Origin: a virus
Virus record (IMG/VR): IMGVR_UViG_3300033127_000028
Location: 1-55,688 of that record
Direction: 5' to 3' (one strand)
DNA: 55,688 bases
Shown here: piece after piece, positions 1,765 to 50,881 of the stretch
How positions within the stretch are numbered: the stretch's first letter is position 1
Layout: each line of letters begins with the position of its first letter
Position numbers and translations under genes: made by a program
The notes under the pieces: model-generated
Database searches by the model: none
The model's input: the letters and a program-made list of their open reading frames with translations, nothing else
Told to the model about the DNA's origin: nothing

Positions 1765-1953
1765 GTGAGATACAGAGAAGTAAGAAAGGCTCTTAGCAAG
1801 GGTGGCTGTGAGATACTTAGACAGAAAGGCTCACATGTTATATGGTACAGCCCAGTGACTGACAAGGTATTCCCAGTACCTAATCATCCTAGTAAGGACT
1901 TACCTAAACCTTTACTAAAAGCCATACAAGAACAGTCAGGGATTAAGCTCTAG
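1765..1953 (+). CDS. hicA: HicA-family mRNA interferase toxin
   Basis: 62 aa with REVRKALSKGGCEILRQKGSHVIW...HPSKDLPKPLLKAI, a typical HicA/YcfA signature. GTG start. Confidence 0.8.
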   Translation: MRYREVRKALSKGGCEILRQKGSHVIWYSPVTDKVFPVPNHPSKDLPKPLLKAIQEQSGIKL

Positions 1954-2036: not shown

Positions 2037-2321
2037 ATGCCCATGTATAAATTTTATGCAATGATTGACAGAGAGAATTTAGATGGTACAGGTCATTACA
2101 TGGTCAGCTTTCCTGATGTAGAGAACTGCTTCACTTATGGTGAGGATATGCAGGGGGCTGTAAGTAATGCTCATGATGCTCTCAGAGAGCTTTTAATTGT
2201 TGAGGAGCAGAGGGGTAAGGAAATTCCTAAAGCCTCTAAGCTGCCTGATTTAGAACTTAAACAGGGTGCAAGTTATGTGCTGATTGAAGTAAATACAGAT
2301 GTTAAAAGAGAGGCTGTGTAG
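2037..2321 (+). CDS. hicB: HicB-family antitoxin (short form, no obvious DNA-binding domain)
   Basis: YMVSFPDVENCFTYGEDMQGAVSNAHDALRELL resembles the HicB N-terminal fold. It lies directly downstream of hicA and has an AGGAGG RBS. Confidence 0.7.
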   Translation: MPMYKFYAMIDRENLDGTGHYMVSFPDVENCFTYGEDMQGAVSNAHDALRELLIVEEQRGKEIPKASKLPDLELKQGASYVLIEVNTDVKREAV

Positions 2322-2893: not shown

Positions 2894-3040
2894 ATGATTA
2901 TACTGATATTACTCATTATTATGGCTTTAGGTGGCTGTAAGATGATTTATGATAATTACAGAATTAGAAGGTACAAAGAGGAAAAGCTGTGGGAAAGAGT
3001 GGAAAGGCATGAGGCAAAGAAAAAGAAGGGGGCTGAGTAA
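2894..3040 (+). CDS. Small membrane or lipoprotein-like peptide (48 aa, not in the ORF track)
   Basis: MIILILLIIMALGGCKMIYDNYRIRRYKEEKLWERVERHEAKKKKGAE. GGGAGAG RBS, a hydrophobic N-terminus with an LGGC lipobox-like motif, and a basic tail. Confidence 0.4.
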   Translation: MIILILLIIMALGGCKMIYDNYRIRRYKEEKLWERVERHEAKKKKGAE

Positions 3041-3061: not shown

Positions 3062-3090
3062 AAAAAAAAAGGAAGGCTTTTAAGCCTCCA
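3062..3090 (-). terminator. Rho-independent terminator after the phr-like gene
   Basis: On the - strand: GGAGGC-ttaaaa-GCCTTCC followed by T9. Confidence 0.6.
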
Positions 3091-3097
3091 CATTGTT

Positions 3098-3220
3098 TTA
3101 AGAACCTGCACCTCTTGAAGATAATAACATAATGTTATCAGTCTTTGCTGACTTGTCATGGGCAGCAGCAGGTATGCTGAATAGTGAGCCAATAAGTAAA
3201 GCAGTGGTAATGATCATCAT
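3098..3220 (-). CDS. Phr-like secreted signalling pro-peptide (40 aa, not in the ORF track)
   Basis: MMIITTALLIGSLFSIPAAAHDKSAKTDNIMLLSSRGAGS. It has a signal peptide ending in AAA, starts 13 nt downstream of the Rap stop on the same strand, and is followed by a terminator. Confidence 0.55.
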   Translation of the reverse strand: MMIITTALLIGSLFSIPAAAHDKSAKTDNIMLLSSRGAGS

Positions 3221-3232
3221 AAATTTTTTCAA

Positions 3233-4321
3233 TTAAATGATCTCCTTTCCTGTTAGTATACTTGAATGTAGGGCTACCTCTAGGAAGTAAGTGGCTTCTT
3301 TGTGCATGTCTTTTGCTTTAAAAATCTTGGCTACATCAGGAGCTAAAGCCTCTATGTCTACATAAGCCTTTTTCTCCTCTAATAGTTTAAGCCCTTCTTT
3401 TATGTTAACAAAACTTTCCACAGGTTGGGTATAACTTTTGTTAAGAATTTCAAACTTTATTATAAAATTCTCATTGGACTGCTTCTCAGAGAAGGCTAGA
3501 CCTTCATCAACCCATTTCAAGGCATCTTCAATCCTGCTTAATTTGTAAGCTGACCTTGCATACTCATACACACACTGTAGGTAGGATATTGGTGCAGATT
3601 CTTTTAGATTATCTGTGGAGATAGCTTTATTGAAATAGTCTATAGCATCAGTGTGGTCATCTGTTTGGATTTTAAGGAATCCTAGATCATAGTAAGCTAA
3701 GGCTAATAACTTCTTATCATCTTTCTCAATCAATTGGTTCACACAATCTTGCAGCATGTCCTCTGCCTTACTTAACCTGCCATCATCTATGTAGTTTAAA
3801 GCAAGCAGCATAGTACAGTTAATAGTCTGAATGCTATAACCATCATGACCTTTATAAATATCCTTAGCAGTGATCAGATGATGGTGCGCCAACAATGTGA
3901 CTTTATTGAAATAGTACAGTGTACCAATTTTGTAATGGAACTCTGCTTTTTCAATCTCATCATAAACTTTATCTAGCTTTCTCTCAGCTACCCTAAAGAG
4001 TGCTAAGGCTTCTGAGTAATTATTCTTGGCACTCTCATACATTCCTTTGAATAAGTAAAAGTAAAAACTCAGCATATCATCTGTCTTAATTCTCTCAGAC
4101 TCAGAAATAGAGGGCTGTCCTGTTAAATCTTCCATCAGAACTTTAAATCTATAATCTAAGATGTTGAAGTACAGTAAGACATCCTGATTTTCCTCCATGT
4201 TATCAATCATTTTCTTGATCTCATCCCTAAGCTCCACTGCCTGAGACACTTCTCTTTTCTTTATGTGGACATACCATGTATTTAAGGTGTTTGCTACATC
4301 CACAGAGGCAATGTTCCCCAT
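3233..4321 (-). CDS. Rap-family (RRNPP) TPR quorum-sensing receptor
   Basis: The N-terminus VANTLNTWYVHIKK...DEIKKMIDNMEENQDVLLYFNILDYRFKVLMEDL parallels the Bacillus Rap N-terminal three-helix bundle. The rest is TPR-like. 362 aa. Confidence 0.65.
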   Translation of the reverse strand: MGNIASVDVANTLNTWYVHIKKREVSQAVELRDEIKKMIDNMEENQDVLLYFNILDYRFKVLMEDLTGQPSISESERIKTDDMLSFYFYLFKGMYESAKNNYSEALALFRVAERKLDKVYDEIEKAEFHYKIGTLYYFNKVTLLAHHHLITAKDIYKGHDGYSIQTINCTMLLALNYIDDGRLSKAEDMLQDCVNQLIEKDDKKLLALAYYDLGFLKIQTDDHTDAIDYFNKAISTDNLKESAPISYLQCVYEYARSAYKLSRIEDALKWVDEGLAFSEKQSNENFIIKFEILNKSYTQPVESFVNIKEGLKLLEEKKAYVDIEALAPDVAKIFKAKDMHKEATYFLEVALHSSILTGKEII

Positions 4322-4421
4322 TCTATAACCTCCTTAAAAGCATATACCAATTATTTTACATAATAAGAAAAGAAATGGATAGTGCAAATAGGTTGATACT
4401 TTCATATTCTTTAGGGATTTA

Positions 4422-4458
4422 TGTCACAAAAGGTCTAGTAATGTCTAACTAAGGAGGG
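4422..4458 (+). promoter_or_regulatory. Class II phage promoter-like element
   Basis: TGTCACA-N16-CTAACTAAGGAGGG, 17 nt upstream of ATG 4475. Confidence 0.55.
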
Positions 4459-4474
4459 GAGGAGGTGATTTTAT

Positions 4475-10412: not shown

Positions 10413-11171
10413 ATGGAAAAGAGATATACAGTTAAGTCTAATGGAACTACAGAAGAAGGTAAAAAGTTTTGGCAGGTCTATGATAAAGAGGTTGAAAAAT
10501 TTCTTACTCAGTTTGAGGGTGGGAGATTTGCGCTACAGGACATTGCTAAGCAGTTGAATAAGGGTACTCTTACATTAGAGGAGAAGTCTACAAAGACTGT
10601 AGGTTACATGAGGGTTTCTACAAAATTAGAGACTCAAGTATTTGACAGACAAGAGGAGCAGCTAAAGGCTTTAGGTGTTGATAAGATTTATCAAGACAGA
10701 ATGTCAGGAGCTAAGAGGGAAAGACCTGAGCTTAACAGGATGTTAGATGAGTTAGAAGAAGGAGACACAGTTATCATTGTAGCAATTGATAGGCTGAGCA
10801 GGTCAACTAAAGACCTTCTTGAGATTGTGGAGATCATTAAAAACAAAGGCGCACAGCTAAAGTCTATTAATGATACATGGTTAGACACTACATCTAGCAA
10901 CCCTATGTCTGACTTTCTTCTTACAGTTATGGGAGCTTTAGGGCAGATGGAGAGGGCTTTAGCTACTCAAAGGGTGAGAGAAGGTCTTGAGGTTGCCAAA
11001 GTGAAAGGAACTAGACTAGGCAGACCTAAGAAAAGTAAGAAGAAGGTAGACCATGCTTTAGAGCTTTACAAAAAAGGAGAGCATACAGTCTCTGAGATTA
11101 CTTCTATCACAGGAGTTTCAAGAGCTACCCTTTATAGAGCTATTAAAACTCTTGAGGAGGCTGCTCAGTGA
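10413..11171 (+). CDS. Small serine recombinase (resolvase/invertase family) with an approximately 60-aa N-terminal extension
   Basis: GYMRVSTKLETQ catalytic Ser motif, AIDRLSRS, GRPKK, and the C-terminal HTH VSEITSITGVSRATLYRAIK. Confidence 0.8.
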   Translation: MEKRYTVKSNGTTEEGKKFWQVYDKEVEKFLTQFEGGRFALQDIAKQLNKGTLTLEEKSTKTVGYMRVSTKLETQVFDRQEEQLKALGVDKIYQDRMSGAKRERPELNRMLDELEEGDTVIIVAIDRLSRSTKDLLEIVEIIKNKGAQLKSINDTWLDTTSSNPMSDFLLTVMGALGQMERALATQRVREGLEVAKVKGTRLGRPKKSKKKVDHALELYKKGEHTVSEITSITGVSRATLYRAIKTLEEAAQ

Positions 11172-43372: not shown

Positions 43373-43933
43373 ATGTCATTAACAGTAATTACAGGGAGCA
43401 TGTTTGCAGGTAAATCTAAGAAACTAATTGAGCTAGGTAAGGAGCAGGAAGGTAAGGCAGTTCTTTTCATCAAGCCTGCTGTAGATAACAGGTACTCTGT
43501 GGATGAGATTGTTACTCATGATGGAGAGTCAGTTAGAGCTATGGTTATTGACTCTGATACACAGCTTAACATTGCTGATTTTTTCACCATCTTAGGAGCT
43601 AATGTGGTGCTAATTGATGAGGCACAATTTTTCACTACTGACCTTATTGACATGGTTGCATCTATGCTTGAAGAAGAAGATAAAAAAGTGTATGTAGCAG
43701 GTCTTAATTATGACTATAAAGGTAAGGAATTTGAGACTACAGCTAAGCTGATTGAGCTTGCTGATGAAGTGATTGAGCTTACTGCTGAGTGTGCTGATTG
43801 TAAAGGTGAGGCTACTTTAACTGCTAAGACATCAGGCTCAGATAAGAGGGTAGAGCTGGGCAGCAAAGACATCTACAAGCCTGTGTGTGTTAAATGCTTC
43901 AAACATGTAAAGGGGGTGGGATTCAATGAGTAA
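43373..43933 (+). CDS. tdk: Thymidine kinase
   Basis: GSMFAGKSKKLIE P-loop, VLIDEAQFF, and C-terminal Cys pairs CADC...CVKC. Confidence 0.85.
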   Translation: MSLTVITGSMFAGKSKKLIELGKEQEGKAVLFIKPAVDNRYSVDEIVTHDGESVRAMVIDSDTQLNIADFFTILGANVVLIDEAQFFTTDLIDMVASMLEEEDKKVYVAGLNYDYKGKEFETTAKLIELADEVIELTAECADCKGEATLTAKTSGSDKRVELGSKDIYKPVCVKCFKHVKGVGFNE

Positions 43934-44201
43934 GACTATCAAACAATCTCAAAAACATGTATCAAAAGCAGTAGGTGTGTTCTCTCAGGCAGTTAATGAG
44001 GTAGAGAAAGCACAGGCTGTCCTGCAAGAAGGTATCAAGGCTGATACTATGGCAGCTACTTCTAAGCTGAATCAGATTAAGAAGATTGAGAAAGAGATTG
44101 CTGACATTGGAAAGTCCAAAGAGGCTAAAGGTATTGAATATAAGAAAAATGCTGAGCTACTTACTAACCTCAAGCAGTTTACATCAGGTAAAGAGCTGTG
44201 A
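43926..44201 (+). CDS. Hypothetical coiled-coil protein (91 aa)
   Basis: Open frame overlapping the tdk stop. Confidence 0.45.
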   Translation: MSKTIKQSQKHVSKAVGVFSQAVNEVEKAQAVLQEGIKADTMAATSKLNQIKKIEKEIADIGKSKEAKGIEYKKNAELLTNLKQFTSGKEL

Positions 44202-44226
44202 TTTATGTGAGGGGAGAGGGAGGAGA

Positions 44227-44880
44227 ATGTCAGTGATTGTAGTTGGTGGCATGATAGGACTGGGAAAGTCCAGTACAGCAAAGATTTTAGGTGAGGCTCT
44301 AGGAAGTGAGGTCTTTTATGAGAATGTAGATGACAATGAAATTTTACCATTGTTTTATACAGCCTCAGAGGAAGAAGCGCAGGAGAAAAGGTATCCATTC
44401 CTATTGCAGCTAGAATTTTTACAAAGCAGGTTTAAGGACATTAAAAAAGCATTACAGCACAGACAGAATGTACTTGACAGATCAATCTATGAAGATTGGT
44501 ACTTTGCTAAAGTTAACAAGGATTTAGGTAGAATCTCAGACACTGAGTTTAGCATCTATGAAAAGCTCCTTTATAACATGATGGAGGAATTAGATGAGCT
44601 TCCTAAGAAAGCACCTGACTTAATGGTGTATTTAAGAGCCTCTTTTGAAACAGTACTTTATAGAATTGGACTGAGGGGTAGAGATTTTGAGCAGGATGCA
44701 GGTCTAGTAGATTACTACAGAACACTGTGGGAGGGTTATGATAAGTGGCTGTTTAACCACTATGATGCCTCAGAAGTGATTGTAATTGATATGGACAAGA
44801 TGGATGTAGTCAATAATCCTGAGGATGCTCAATCAGTAGTAACTCAGGTGAAAAATAAACTTATTGAAATGGGGATTTAG
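44227..44880 (+). CDS. Deoxynucleoside kinase (dCK/dGK/dAK family)
   Basis: VVGGMIGLGKSS P-loop, FYENVDDN, FLLQLEFL and LDRSIYED motifs. ATG 44227 after GGGAGGAG; the track ORF starts earlier. Confidence 0.75.
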   Translation: MSVIVVGGMIGLGKSSTAKILGEALGSEVFYENVDDNEILPLFYTASEEEAQEKRYPFLLQLEFLQSRFKDIKKALQHRQNVLDRSIYEDWYFAKVNKDLGRISDTEFSIYEKLLYNMMEELDELPKKAPDLMVYLRASFETVLYRIGLRGRDFEQDAGLVDYYRTLWEGYDKWLFNHYDASEVIVIDMDKMDVVNNPEDAQSVVTQVKNKLIEMGI

Positions 44881-49704: not shown

Positions 49705-50142
49705 TTATTTTCCTTCAAGCTTAGAAAGATTAGCTTTTATCATATTATCTCTATACATTTCTTTAATTTCCATAGGCATTTCTCTTGTCTTTGTCCACTC
49801 AGCACTTACTGCATCATAAGCCTCTTTTTTCTCCTGAGGTAATCTAATCTCAATTAACTCACTTAATGAAGATACTTGTAAAGCCACCATTATAGCTGCT
49901 AACTGTATTTTATTAAAACTAAGGTTCTTACCATTAATTATCTGAGATACACTGCCAACCCTCATACCTGTCATCAATGCTAGGTCTTGCTGTGTCATAC
50001 CTCTTTCTTTAAGTAAATCATCTATCTTAATTACTACATCAGCATCCTCTATAAAGCTTGCTGTACCTAAAACCACCTCATTCATAACTCCATGAGAGCT
50101 TTCAATCAAGTCTTTTAATTTAGTTTTCCTCATAATTATCAC
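49705..50142 (-). CDS. XRE-family HTH transcriptional regulator (candidate repressor)
   Basis: LLKERGMTQQDLALMTGMRVGSVSQIINGK HTH. It is the only - strand gene in this half and is divergent from the 50.2-kb promoter region. The ATG at 50133 is an alternative start. Confidence 0.7.
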   Translation of the reverse strand: MIIMRKTKLKDLIESSHGVMNEVVLGTASFIEDADVVIKIDDLLKERGMTQQDLALMTGMRVGSVSQIINGKNLSFNKIQLAAIMVALQVSSLSELIEIRLPQEKKEAYDAVSAEWTKTREMPMEIKEMYRDNMIKANLSKLEGK

Positions 50143-50323: not shown

Positions 50324-50881
50324 ATGACAGTTAAAATTGCCCTTTTAGGGGAGATCAGAGCAGGCAAAGACACTGTAGCTAACCTGATTGATAATCAATT
50401 ACACACAGGTGATACAGTTTTTATGGCTTTTGCTGATGAGATACACAAAGTAATTAAACAGTACTTTCCTGAGGCTTATTTAGAGGGGAAGCCTAGAAGA
50501 TTCCTGCAAGAAATAGGGCAGGCATTTAGGAGACTTAACCCTGATATATGGATTAATAAGCTATTTAACTCAGAAAGATACACAACTGCTATAGAACAGT
50601 CACAGCATATCATCATTACAGATGTGAGACAACCCAATGAGGCTATTAGGCTGAAATTGGAAGGCTTCACAATCATTAAGGTCACTGCTGATGAAGGCAT
50701 TAGACTAGCAAGAGCTATAGATAAGGGTGATGACTTTAAAGTAAGTGACTTCTACCATGAGACTGAATTAGCTATTCAGCATTGTCACTATGATGTAGTT
50801 ATTGATAATTCCTCAACTATAGAAGCTCTTGAGAAAAGAGTGGCAGAGGTTATTGAGGAGGTGGCTACTAATGGCAAGTAA
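50324..50881 (+). CDS. Deoxynucleoside monophosphate (dNMP) kinase
   Basis: ALLGEIRAGKDTVANLI P-loop of the phage dNMP-kinase type. 185 aa. Confidence 0.6.
   Translation: MTVKIALLGEIRAGKDTVANLIDNQLHTGDTVFMAFADEIHKVIKQYFPEAYLEGKPRRFLQEIGQAFRRLNPDIWINKLFNSERYTTAIEQSQHIIITDVRQPNEAIRLKLEGFTIIKVTADEGIRLARAIDKGDDFKVSDFYHETELAIQHCHYDVVIDNSSTIEALEKRVAEVIEEVATNGK

Follow-up and report, generated by a model that had tools for sequence, protein, structure and literature searches.

A Rap-Phr cassette of the SRGAGS class in a temperate phage of the Bacillus pumilus group

Introduction

Phage-borne Rap-Phr systems are thought to let prophages tune the sporulation or competence of their host, and 326 viral systems, polyphyletic and exchanged with hosts, have been reported (Bernard et al.). 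The locus considered here, on a phage of the Bacillus pumilus group, raises the question of whether a receptor gene and a very short open reading frame (ORF) behind it form such a system, which pheromone they use, and on which protein the receptor acts. The window, by which the whole stretch of DNA analyzed is meant, comprises the 55,688 nucleotides (nt) of IMG/VR virus record IMGVR_UViG_3300033127_000028, and the gene pair occupies positions 3098-4321 on the minus strand. The original prediction was of a Rap-type receptor followed by an unannotated ORF for a secreted, Phr-like peptide of 40 amino acids (aa). The evidence assembled below makes it probable that the locus is a working Rap-Phr quorum-sensing pair with a pheromone of the SRGAGS (RapBL2-type) class and an accessory element of a temperate phage; phosphorylated Spo0F (Spo0F~P) is the best guess for its target. 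The cassette adds a case to the phage-borne Rap-Phr systems already catalogued and is no new kind of system.

The receptor

The receptor gene, rap (3233-4321, minus strand), encodes from its ATG a 362-aa protein of the Rap family with an N-terminal 3-helix bundle (approximately residues 1-66), a short linker, and a TPR body. Raps are RRNPP receptors that lack a DNA-binding domain. The Pfam family RapH_N (PF18801) matches residues 4-64 at 77.5 bits against a cut-off of 27, and TPR_12 is detected in addition. A phmmer search of PDB chains retrieves RappLS20, RapF, Rap3T, RapJ, Rap105, RapH, and RapI with E-values of 6e-48 to 3e-37 across residues 2-355. Nine solved Rap chain sequences are matched over the full length, and the top match is RappLS20 (5.8e-48), marginally ahead of RapF and Rap3T.

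The AlphaFold2 (AF2) model of the protein (predicted local distance difference test score, pLDDT, 90.7; predicted template modeling score, pTM, 0.84) consists of three N-terminal helices at residues 6-21, 25-40, and 46-62, followed by paired helices. In a Foldseek search its best PDB matches are the phi3T Rap-pheromone complexes, RappLS20, RapI, and the RapJ-PhrC complex, with template modeling (TM) scores of 0.74-0.83; over the set of solved Raps found by phmmer, the scores span 0.69-0.83. Full-length homology and fold both point to a C-terminal TPR-like superhelix of about seven helix-turn-helix repeats, as in the solved Raps. NprR reaches just 1e-7 in the sequence search and ranks after the Raps in the fold search, while AimR is found neither among the PDB sequence matches at E<0.01 nor among the top 50 fold matches. 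The receptor is thus a bona fide Rap by Pfam, PDB sequence matches, and fold, and the view that it is Rap-like rather than AimR-like holds in each of these family comparisons.

The peptide gene

The frame downstream of rap contains an ATG at position 3220, the 13th nt past the TAA of rap, which yields the 40-aa peptide exactly as originally quoted. The same frame opens upstream at a TTG (3232-3230) that abuts the rap stop codon and gives a product of 44 residues, MKKFMMIITTALLIGSLFSIPAAAHDKSAKTDNIMLLSSRGAGS. A putative ribosome-binding site, AAAGGAG, read from the sequence at 3242-3248 (minus strand), lies within the last codons of rap, at a spacing of 9 nt from the TTG and of approximately 21 nt from the ATG. 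The TTG start restores the basic MKK n-region that is found in every homologue, and in a near-identical B. safensis prophage the homologous gene is called, in a table sourced from NCBI, as 44 aa with TTG as the first codon. Taken together, the Shine-Dalgarno spacing, the n-region of the homologues, and the B. safensis gene call make TTG the better start, so that the peptide gene, phr (3098-3232, minus strand; stop codon 3098-3100), more likely encodes a 44-aa pre-pro-peptide beginning with MKKF than one of 40 residues. The predicted small ORF is present and would encode a secreted peptide, and its proposed length is what changes.

Annotation of this phage omits the gene. Its three public copies have no gene call in the interval from rap to the ORF that follows, and a collection of 15 billion proteins lacks the peptide in both its 44-aa and its 40-aa form. 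The peptide gene is present in hundreds of contigs of the B. pumilus and B. licheniformis groups, where it is named just "hypothetical protein", and scans of the 44-aa peptide against NCBIfam and Pfam return no family above the cut-off.

The reality of the gene is supported by related loci, of which 21 that include the region downstream of rap were retrieved. All 21 carry, downstream of rap, an ORF that starts with MKK and ends in SRGAGS. Each of the six SRGAGS codons (3101-3118 in the window, minus strand) shows synonymous variants among these loci and none shows a replacement, whereas little of the signal and pro-regions is shared from one species group to another and the preceding residue varies among S, A, and F. 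The Phr of the window differs at six of 44 residues from that of the B. safensis CP015607.1 prophage (L016), with every difference upstream of the last nine. Synonymous-only change in SRGAGS next to a diverging pro-region indicates selection on the peptide rather than conservation of the DNA; in these alignments phr is under purifying selection that is strongest on the last six residues.

The remainder of the peptide has the features expected of an exported precursor. Means of Kyte-Doolittle hydropathy over 11 residues lie at 1.6-2.6 (maximum 2.55) for windows starting at residues 3-14 and fall below 0 from residue 18, and the sequence reads A-A-A at -3 to -1 of the predicted cleavage site, in line with the -3/-1 Ala rule. 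By this heuristic the profile fits a Sec signal peptide cleaved after residue 24 (residues 1-24 at 3161-3232, minus strand), with an MKK n-region, a hydrophobic core, and A-A-A before a predicted cleavage at His25. The signal peptide originally proposed is borne out to that extent.

The SRGAGS pheromone class

The invariant unit of Phr is the hexapeptide SRGAGS, on the alignment of the 21 loci, and this hexapeptide is the predicted mature pheromone. The original prediction was that the mature signal would be a new specificity. SRGAGS was, however, catalogued in 2016 as the putative autoinducer of RapBL2 (AAU22489, B. licheniformis ATCC 14580) in S1 Table of Even-Tov et al. (2016; PMC5199041; PLoS Biol 14:e2000330), which lists SRGAGG for RapBL1. 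The Rap database of the same study holds further SRGAGS entries, and the synthetic peptide was used in its cross-talk matrix. SRGAGS is encoded as well at a non-phage locus of the B. safensis and B. altitudinis chromosomes, and prophages related to this one carry it in further species of Bacillus. A full-text literature search for SRGAGS or RGAGS returned nothing relevant, SRGAGS being found only in the supplements of Even-Tov et al.; it is absent from the available supplements of the RRNPP_Detector paper and of Felipe-Ruiz et al. (2024). The AAU22489 sequence is identical to an ORF read in one B. licheniformis-group locus (L013) and clusters at 90% with P0011, a homologue that shares 59% identity with the Rap of the window.

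The form of the peptide is that of a Phr signal, with a basic residue at position 2 of a conserved C-terminal hexapeptide. Arg2-Gly3 is frequent among Phr signals, as in ERGMT and QRGMI (Even-Tov et al., 2016). In phi3T the C-terminal pheromone that has been validated is SRGHTS, cut after ...IA (Bernard et al., 2020; Felipe-Ruiz et al., 2024), and it shares the format S-R-G-x-x-S with the ...LLS/SRGAGS of the window. The R-G-A within the peptide had been taken as a hint of arbitrium; the likeness is superficial, since RGA is internal here and Arg2-Gly3 is common in Phr (ERGMT, QRGMI, SRGHTS/RRGHTA).

Two related precursors are built differently. The Phr of a B. subtilis prophage (L021, 9094-9240) has 48 residues, ends in SPQTDRNTTLGKQEIVTVASRGAGS, and contains an internal TDRNTT in addition to the terminal SRGAGS. 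This internal hexapeptide is identical to that of B. subtilis PhrH. An entry in the Even-Tov database reads ...EADRHQT...VASRGAGS, and both precursors resemble the pro-peptides with two pheromones that Even-Tov et al. (2016) and Felipe-Ruiz et al. (2024) discuss.

The predicted peptide pocket

Contact residues published for Rap3T and Rap105 were mapped onto the clade, and all 17 residue identities of Rap105 agreed with the list in the paper. Thirteen of the 17 contact-equivalent positions are invariant in the clade, whereas over the whole alignment 47% of positions are (hypergeometric P ~0.011). The chromosomal Raps of B. safensis and B. altitudinis, 76-77% identical overall to the phage Rap, agree with it at all 17. 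Asp179 corresponds to Rap3T Asp193 and Rap105 D187, the residue that forms a salt bridge with the Arg or Lys at position 2 of the pheromone; of 104 homologues, 103 have this Asp. The Rap3T residues that contact Gly3, Tyr151 and Tyr225, have their equivalents in Tyr137 and Tyr211.

Distribution of the cassette

Homologues 58-89% identical to the Rap of the window are found in B. safensis, B. altitudinis, B. pumilus, B. subtilis, B. atrophaeus, and the B. licheniformis group. The cassette lies at the same place in four syntenic prophages, those of B. safensis CP015607.1 (where it is 93% identical in nucleotides), Bacillus sp. NPDC077027, and a B. subtilis strain, and that on an IMG/VR contig. 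Outside the cassette, proteins of these prophages share 44-86% identity with their counterparts in the window, which marks the cassette as a long-standing passenger of the phage lineage. Searches of phage collections return nothing closer: megablast of the cassette and of a 21-kb structural region against 50,697 phage records finds no close isolated phage, and tblastn against phage records finds only phage Raps of at most 36% identity.

The clade also occurs away from this lineage. The chromosomal orthologue of the B. pumilus group sits between glnA and an LXG toxin gene; its DNA homology to the phage copy ends at the limits of the coding sequences, with approximately 72% nucleotide identity and a different promoter region. 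The B. sonorensis copy sits at the edge of an SPbeta-like prophage, beside LXG toxin genes.

Several of these copies are damaged. B. safensis CP015607.1 carries an intact prophage rap-phr (L016) alongside a chromosomal rap (L033, 1908-2998) that is frameshifted into products of 288 and 75 aa, with the chromosomal phr intact; the pattern comes from this single genome. Copies in the B. licheniformis group are often damaged: the rap of L013 and L014 (6001-7095) has a premature stop 18 codons early, which is the AAU22489 allele and is found on 220 contigs, that of L015 has an additional internal deletion or stop, and that of B. swezeyi (L009) is frameshifted.

A proposed mechanism and a probably shared signal

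By analogy with established Rap-Phr biology, the 44-aa Phr would be exported by Sec and cut after AAA24, and the resulting 20-aa pro-peptide would be trimmed to SRGAGS by extracellular proteases. The hexapeptide would be re-imported by Opp and bind the TPR groove, with Arg2 facing Asp179 and Gly3 facing Tyr137 and Tyr211. Binding would switch the Rap off and free its target. At low signal the Rap, acting in our best guess on Spo0F~P, would cause lysogens to delay sporulation.

The host chromosome encodes an identical mature peptide and an identical predicted pocket, which suggests that the SRGAGS channel of the phage is probably shared with the host and not private to lysogens. The phage Rap should then respond to SRGAGS made by the host, and the prophage should add to the signal pool of the host. 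In this B. pumilus-group example a single peptide is common to phage and host chromosome while their receptors have diverged, and the question of a private or a shared signal is directly testable.

The target and the weight of the evidence

The effector 3-helix bundle is the best-conserved part of the receptor in both phage and chromosomal contexts, with 71-97% identity compared with 57-88% for the TPR body, and this conservation suggests a target that is common to hosts. Our best guess is a conserved host protein, most likely Spo0F~P. The functionally tested residues of RapH at the Spo0F interface, Gln47, Glu45, Leu50, Asp134, Glu137, and Tyr175, correspond to Gln46, Glu44, Leu49, Asp121, Glu124, and Tyr162 of the window. 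Gln46 is the equivalent of the catalytic Gln47, and residues of this set are required in the phosphatase subclass of Raps. In contrast, the ComA determinants of RapF, Phe24, Pro27, and Asp28, are replaced by Arg23, Ser26, and Gln27, and the linker is approximately 14 residues shorter.

A number of observations weigh against a functional cassette acting on Spo0F~P, the first of them general: the reading rests on sequence, alignments, and predicted structure, and expression, secretion, processing, and binding are carried over from what is established for other Rap-Phr pairs. The point at which the mature peptide begins (SRGAGS, RGAGS, or a longer form) is likewise deduced from conservation and from the phi3T analogy. 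In the pocket, Asp212 (codon 3686-3688) replaces the backbone-anchoring Asn (Rap3T N226, Rap105 N220) that is present in all cited solved Rap-pheromone complexes, and the binding geometry may differ on that account. Ten of the 11 clade members share this Asp; across the 104 sampled Raps, 89 have Asn and five have Ser. One clade member with the same SRGAGS keeps the Asn, which suggests that the exchange is tolerated; by these alignments Asp212 is treated as a clade variant that gives no ground for exclusion from the Rap family.

The interface residues carry a similar reservation. Those facing Spo0F are conserved in Raps whether or not Spo0A is regulated, and the ComA residues of RapF are not conserved in other Raps that bind ComA (Even-Tov et al., 2016; PMC5199041). 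With published data showing that interface residues do not predict the target, a call based on them is weak and has been down-weighted here.

The same study provides the experimental point. Overexpression of RapBL2 in B. subtilis PY79 gave sporulation of ~37% compared with ~77% in the wild type and PsrfA-YFP of 17.5k compared with 25.7k, that is, a drop of about twofold in sporulation and of about one-third in PsrfA, which its authors class as no strong effect (PMC5199041). Since RapBL2 had no strong phenotype, the study did not go on to measure how it responds to SRGAGS (Even-Tov et al., 2016; PMC5199041). The allele used has 346 residues and lacks the last 18 of the intact 364-aa alleles; the missing end includes the C-terminal helix, the main element of Rap dimerization (S3 Fig legend, Felipe-Ruiz et al., 2024). 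Truncation of the allele makes the negative result ambiguous. The sole functional test of the SRGAGS pheromone class was made with a naturally truncated receptor, which leaves the class effectively uncharacterized.

The RapBL2 result can also be taken as a hint of a target other than Spo0F or ComA. It is possible, although we regard it as doubtful, that two things hold jointly: (a) the receptor is tuned to the chromosomal pheromone of the host, so that the lysogen reads total host density and feeds the pool, and (b) the target of the SRGAGS clade is neither Spo0F nor ComA. If (b) were true, the phage lineage would have kept the cassette across several host species for that function, and the change from Asn to Asp at the anchor would reflect a modified binding mode.

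Mobile elements offer precedents for a Rap with a target of its own element. RapI acts on ICEBs1 via ImmA/ImmR, and RappLS20 acts on conjugation via RcopLS20. On this model the Rap of the window would control the life cycle of the phage (induction, excision, or lysis-lysogeny) through a phage-encoded partner, and the peptide would report density to repress or permit induction. We consider this unlikely, although several observations are in its favor. RappLS20 is the top sequence match, if by a marginal lead over RapF and Rap3T; the cassette is close to attP and the integrase, as in phi105, and has been retained over a diverged phage lineage; RapBL2 has no strong effect on the Spo0A or ComA pathways; and some Raps of mobile elements govern the mobility of their element (Even-Tov et al., 2016). 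The model is opposed by the places in which the clade is found, as orthologues of 76-77% identity with the same peptide lie at the non-phage locus between glnA and the LXG toxin gene and others lie at the edge of an unrelated SPbeta-like prophage, while the 3-helix bundle is the most conserved region in all contexts. Scans of approximately 40 phage ORFs with Pfam or PHROGs detect no ImmA-like peptidase M78, and the sole Cro/CI-type repressor candidate (49705-50142) is distant from the cassette.

ComA is a quite improbable main target. The proposal would be that the Rap acts as a ComA anti-activator, like RapC and RapF, such that lysogens skip ComA-dependent public goods until SRGAGS accumulates. 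Many Raps gained control of ComA independently and without the interface residues of RapF (Even-Tov et al., 2016), Rap3T of phi3T represses both competence and sporulation, and RapBL2 cut PsrfA-YFP by about a third. Against these stand the weakness of that effect on srfA and the sequence of the receptor itself, in which Phe24, conserved in Raps shown to bind ComA directly, is a clade-invariant Arg23, Ser26 and Gln27 take the places of Pro27 and Asp28, and the shortened linker is the segment in which RapF has its ComA contact Gln78.

Two further readings are both extremely improbable. Short ORFs are common in AT-rich DNA, automatic annotation left this one uncalled, and several raps of the clade are themselves decaying, so that phr could be a chance frame or decaying remnant and rap an orphan; this is rejected on conservation, with the ORF in all 21 loci and only synonymous change in its last six codons, and the well-placed Shine-Dalgarno sequence, the terminator, the signal-peptide-like profile, and the gene calls in many NCBI-sourced genome records point the same way. 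An arbitrium-like AimR-AimP system for lysis-lysogeny, or a hybrid that uses an RGA-type peptide, could draw on the R-G-A that also ends arbitrium peptides such as SAIRGA, but it is rejected on domain, fold, and peptide architecture: by Pfam the N-terminus is the RapH_N 3-helix bundle and no helix-turn-helix domain or AimR family is matched, AimR is missing from the sequence and fold matches given above, and RGA is followed by GS, whereas AimP has RGA or GA at its extreme C-terminus. AimR receptors are proteins of 330-450 aa, and the only ORFs of that size in the window are rap and DnaB, which leaves no second receptor-sized gene there.

Relation to known systems

Close among the known systems is RapBL2-PhrBL2 of B. 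licheniformis ATCC 14580, which belongs to the same clade (P0011 cluster, 59%) and has the same predicted autoinducer and gene order. RapBL2 differs in ending at a premature stop after 346 aa, whereas the Rap of the window is full length, and related copies of the licheniformis group (B. sonorensis) lie at the edge of an SPbeta-like prophage, outside the lineage of the window phage. The chromosomal Rap-Phr of B. safensis and B. altitudinis is closer in sequence, with a receptor of 76-77% identity, all 17 contact positions, and mature SRGAGS, but is not phage-borne, has an unlike promoter region, and has F or S before SRGAGS.

Among phage systems, that of phi3T (Bernard et al., 2020; Felipe-Ruiz et al., 2024; PDB 8RST) is the best fold match. 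It likewise pairs a phage-borne Rap with a downstream Phr, the C-terminal hexapeptides (SRGHTS and SRGAGS) each follow a small residue, and both receptors have the Asp that binds Arg2 and the Tyr residues that contact Gly3. The phi3T Rap is, however, just 30% identical, retains the anchor Asn226 in place of Asp212, and differs at the position of RapH Gln47, with His compared with Gln in the window, and Phr3T contains a second, internal pheromone, RRGHTA. The phage phi3T is SPbeta-like, has ~128 kb, and relies on arbitrium, whereas the window phage shows no second receptor. In phi105 (PDB 8RTE), a small temperate siphovirus, rap-phr also lies beside attP and a serine recombinase and the phr frame likewise opens with TTG, but the Rap is 27% identical and the pheromone is ERPVGT, duplicated in the pro-peptide.

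RappLS20 and RapI share carriage on mobile elements, and RappLS20 is nominally the top PDB sequence match. They differ in their identity of approximately 30%, in that the window clade also occurs off mobile elements, and in having element-encoded targets, for which no equivalent was found among the approximately 40 window-phage ORFs scanned. Arbitrium AimR-AimP is likewise a peptide signaling pair on temperate Bacillus phages with R-G-A in the peptide; the receptor of the window lacks its helix-turn-helix and is not AimR by sequence or fold, and the architecture of the peptide is Phr-like.

Expression signals

The rap-phr pair is a self-contained unit of two genes that runs against the phage genes, on the other strand. 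Ribosome-binding sites, a promoter-like site, and a terminator all belong to the unit itself. A putative ribosome-binding site for rap, AAGGAGG (4329-4335, minus strand), is read from the sequence and is invariant in aligned upstream regions. The candidate sigma-A-type promoter (4353-4388, minus strand) reads TTTGCA-17-TATTAT, scores 9/12 in a consensus scan, and overlaps an extended -10-like sequence, TGTAAAAT. Its TATGTAAAATA block is kept in the prophage-borne copies (the window, L016, L021, and L001) and not in the chromosomal copy L017. The original prediction placed the module divergent from a class II promoter; the spacer between rap and orf80 (4322-4474) shows only sigma-A-like consensus matches, on both strands, and a search of it for inverted repeats as operators yields only weak pairs and the two ribosome-binding sites.

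A regular-expression scan of the 3' end of rap finds no sigma-H-type promoter near phr, and co-transcription of rap and phr is assumed on that basis. The terminator that the original prediction placed after the small ORF is found as an intrinsic terminator (3062-3089, minus strand), GGAGGCTTAAAAGCCTTC followed by a T-run, with a 7-bp stem at 3089-3072 and nine T; it begins 9 nt past the phr stop codon. The surrounding 2-kb region holds six terminator-like sites, with 1.4 expected.

The phage genome and the neighborhood of the cassette

The window is a complete temperate, siphovirus-like phage genome of the B. pumilus group. Its ends are identical (1-55 and 55634-55688), which looks like the overlap of a circular assembly. 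The same phage is integrated beside host CN-hydrolase and HAD-hydrolase genes on a metagenome scaffold, where the aligned stretch that runs into the host flank is ~93% identical to B. safensis, and it occurs as a circularly permuted contig of 55,663 bp in another sample. Comparison of the integrated and circularly permuted copies (L037 and L038) places attP immediately before the integrase gene. Beside this large serine integrase, the phage has genes for terminase, portal, major head protein, tape measure, endolysin, DnaB, primase, and DNA polymerase.

The cassette lies approximately 1.5 kb from the serine integrase and beside hicAB, and its assignment to an accessory island of integrase and toxin-antitoxin genes is well founded. 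Between the integrase and rap-phr, hicA (1765-1953, plus strand; 62 aa) pairs with hicB (2037-2321, plus strand; 94 aa), and both are kept in prophages L016, L001, and L021. A small serine recombinase of the resolvase/invertase type (10413-11171, plus strand; 252 aa) lies upstream of the terminase genes and is 69-81% identical in related prophages. Genes for nucleotide salvage (43373-44880, 50324-50881, and 54140-54721, plus strand) encode thymidine kinase, deoxynucleoside kinase, dNMP kinase, and nucleoside 2-deoxyribosyltransferase. Converging on the phr terminator is a 48-aa hydrophobic and basic ORF (MIILILLIIMALGGC...; 2894-3040, plus strand), which public copies of the phage annotate as a gene and which related prophages (L012 and L021) also have.

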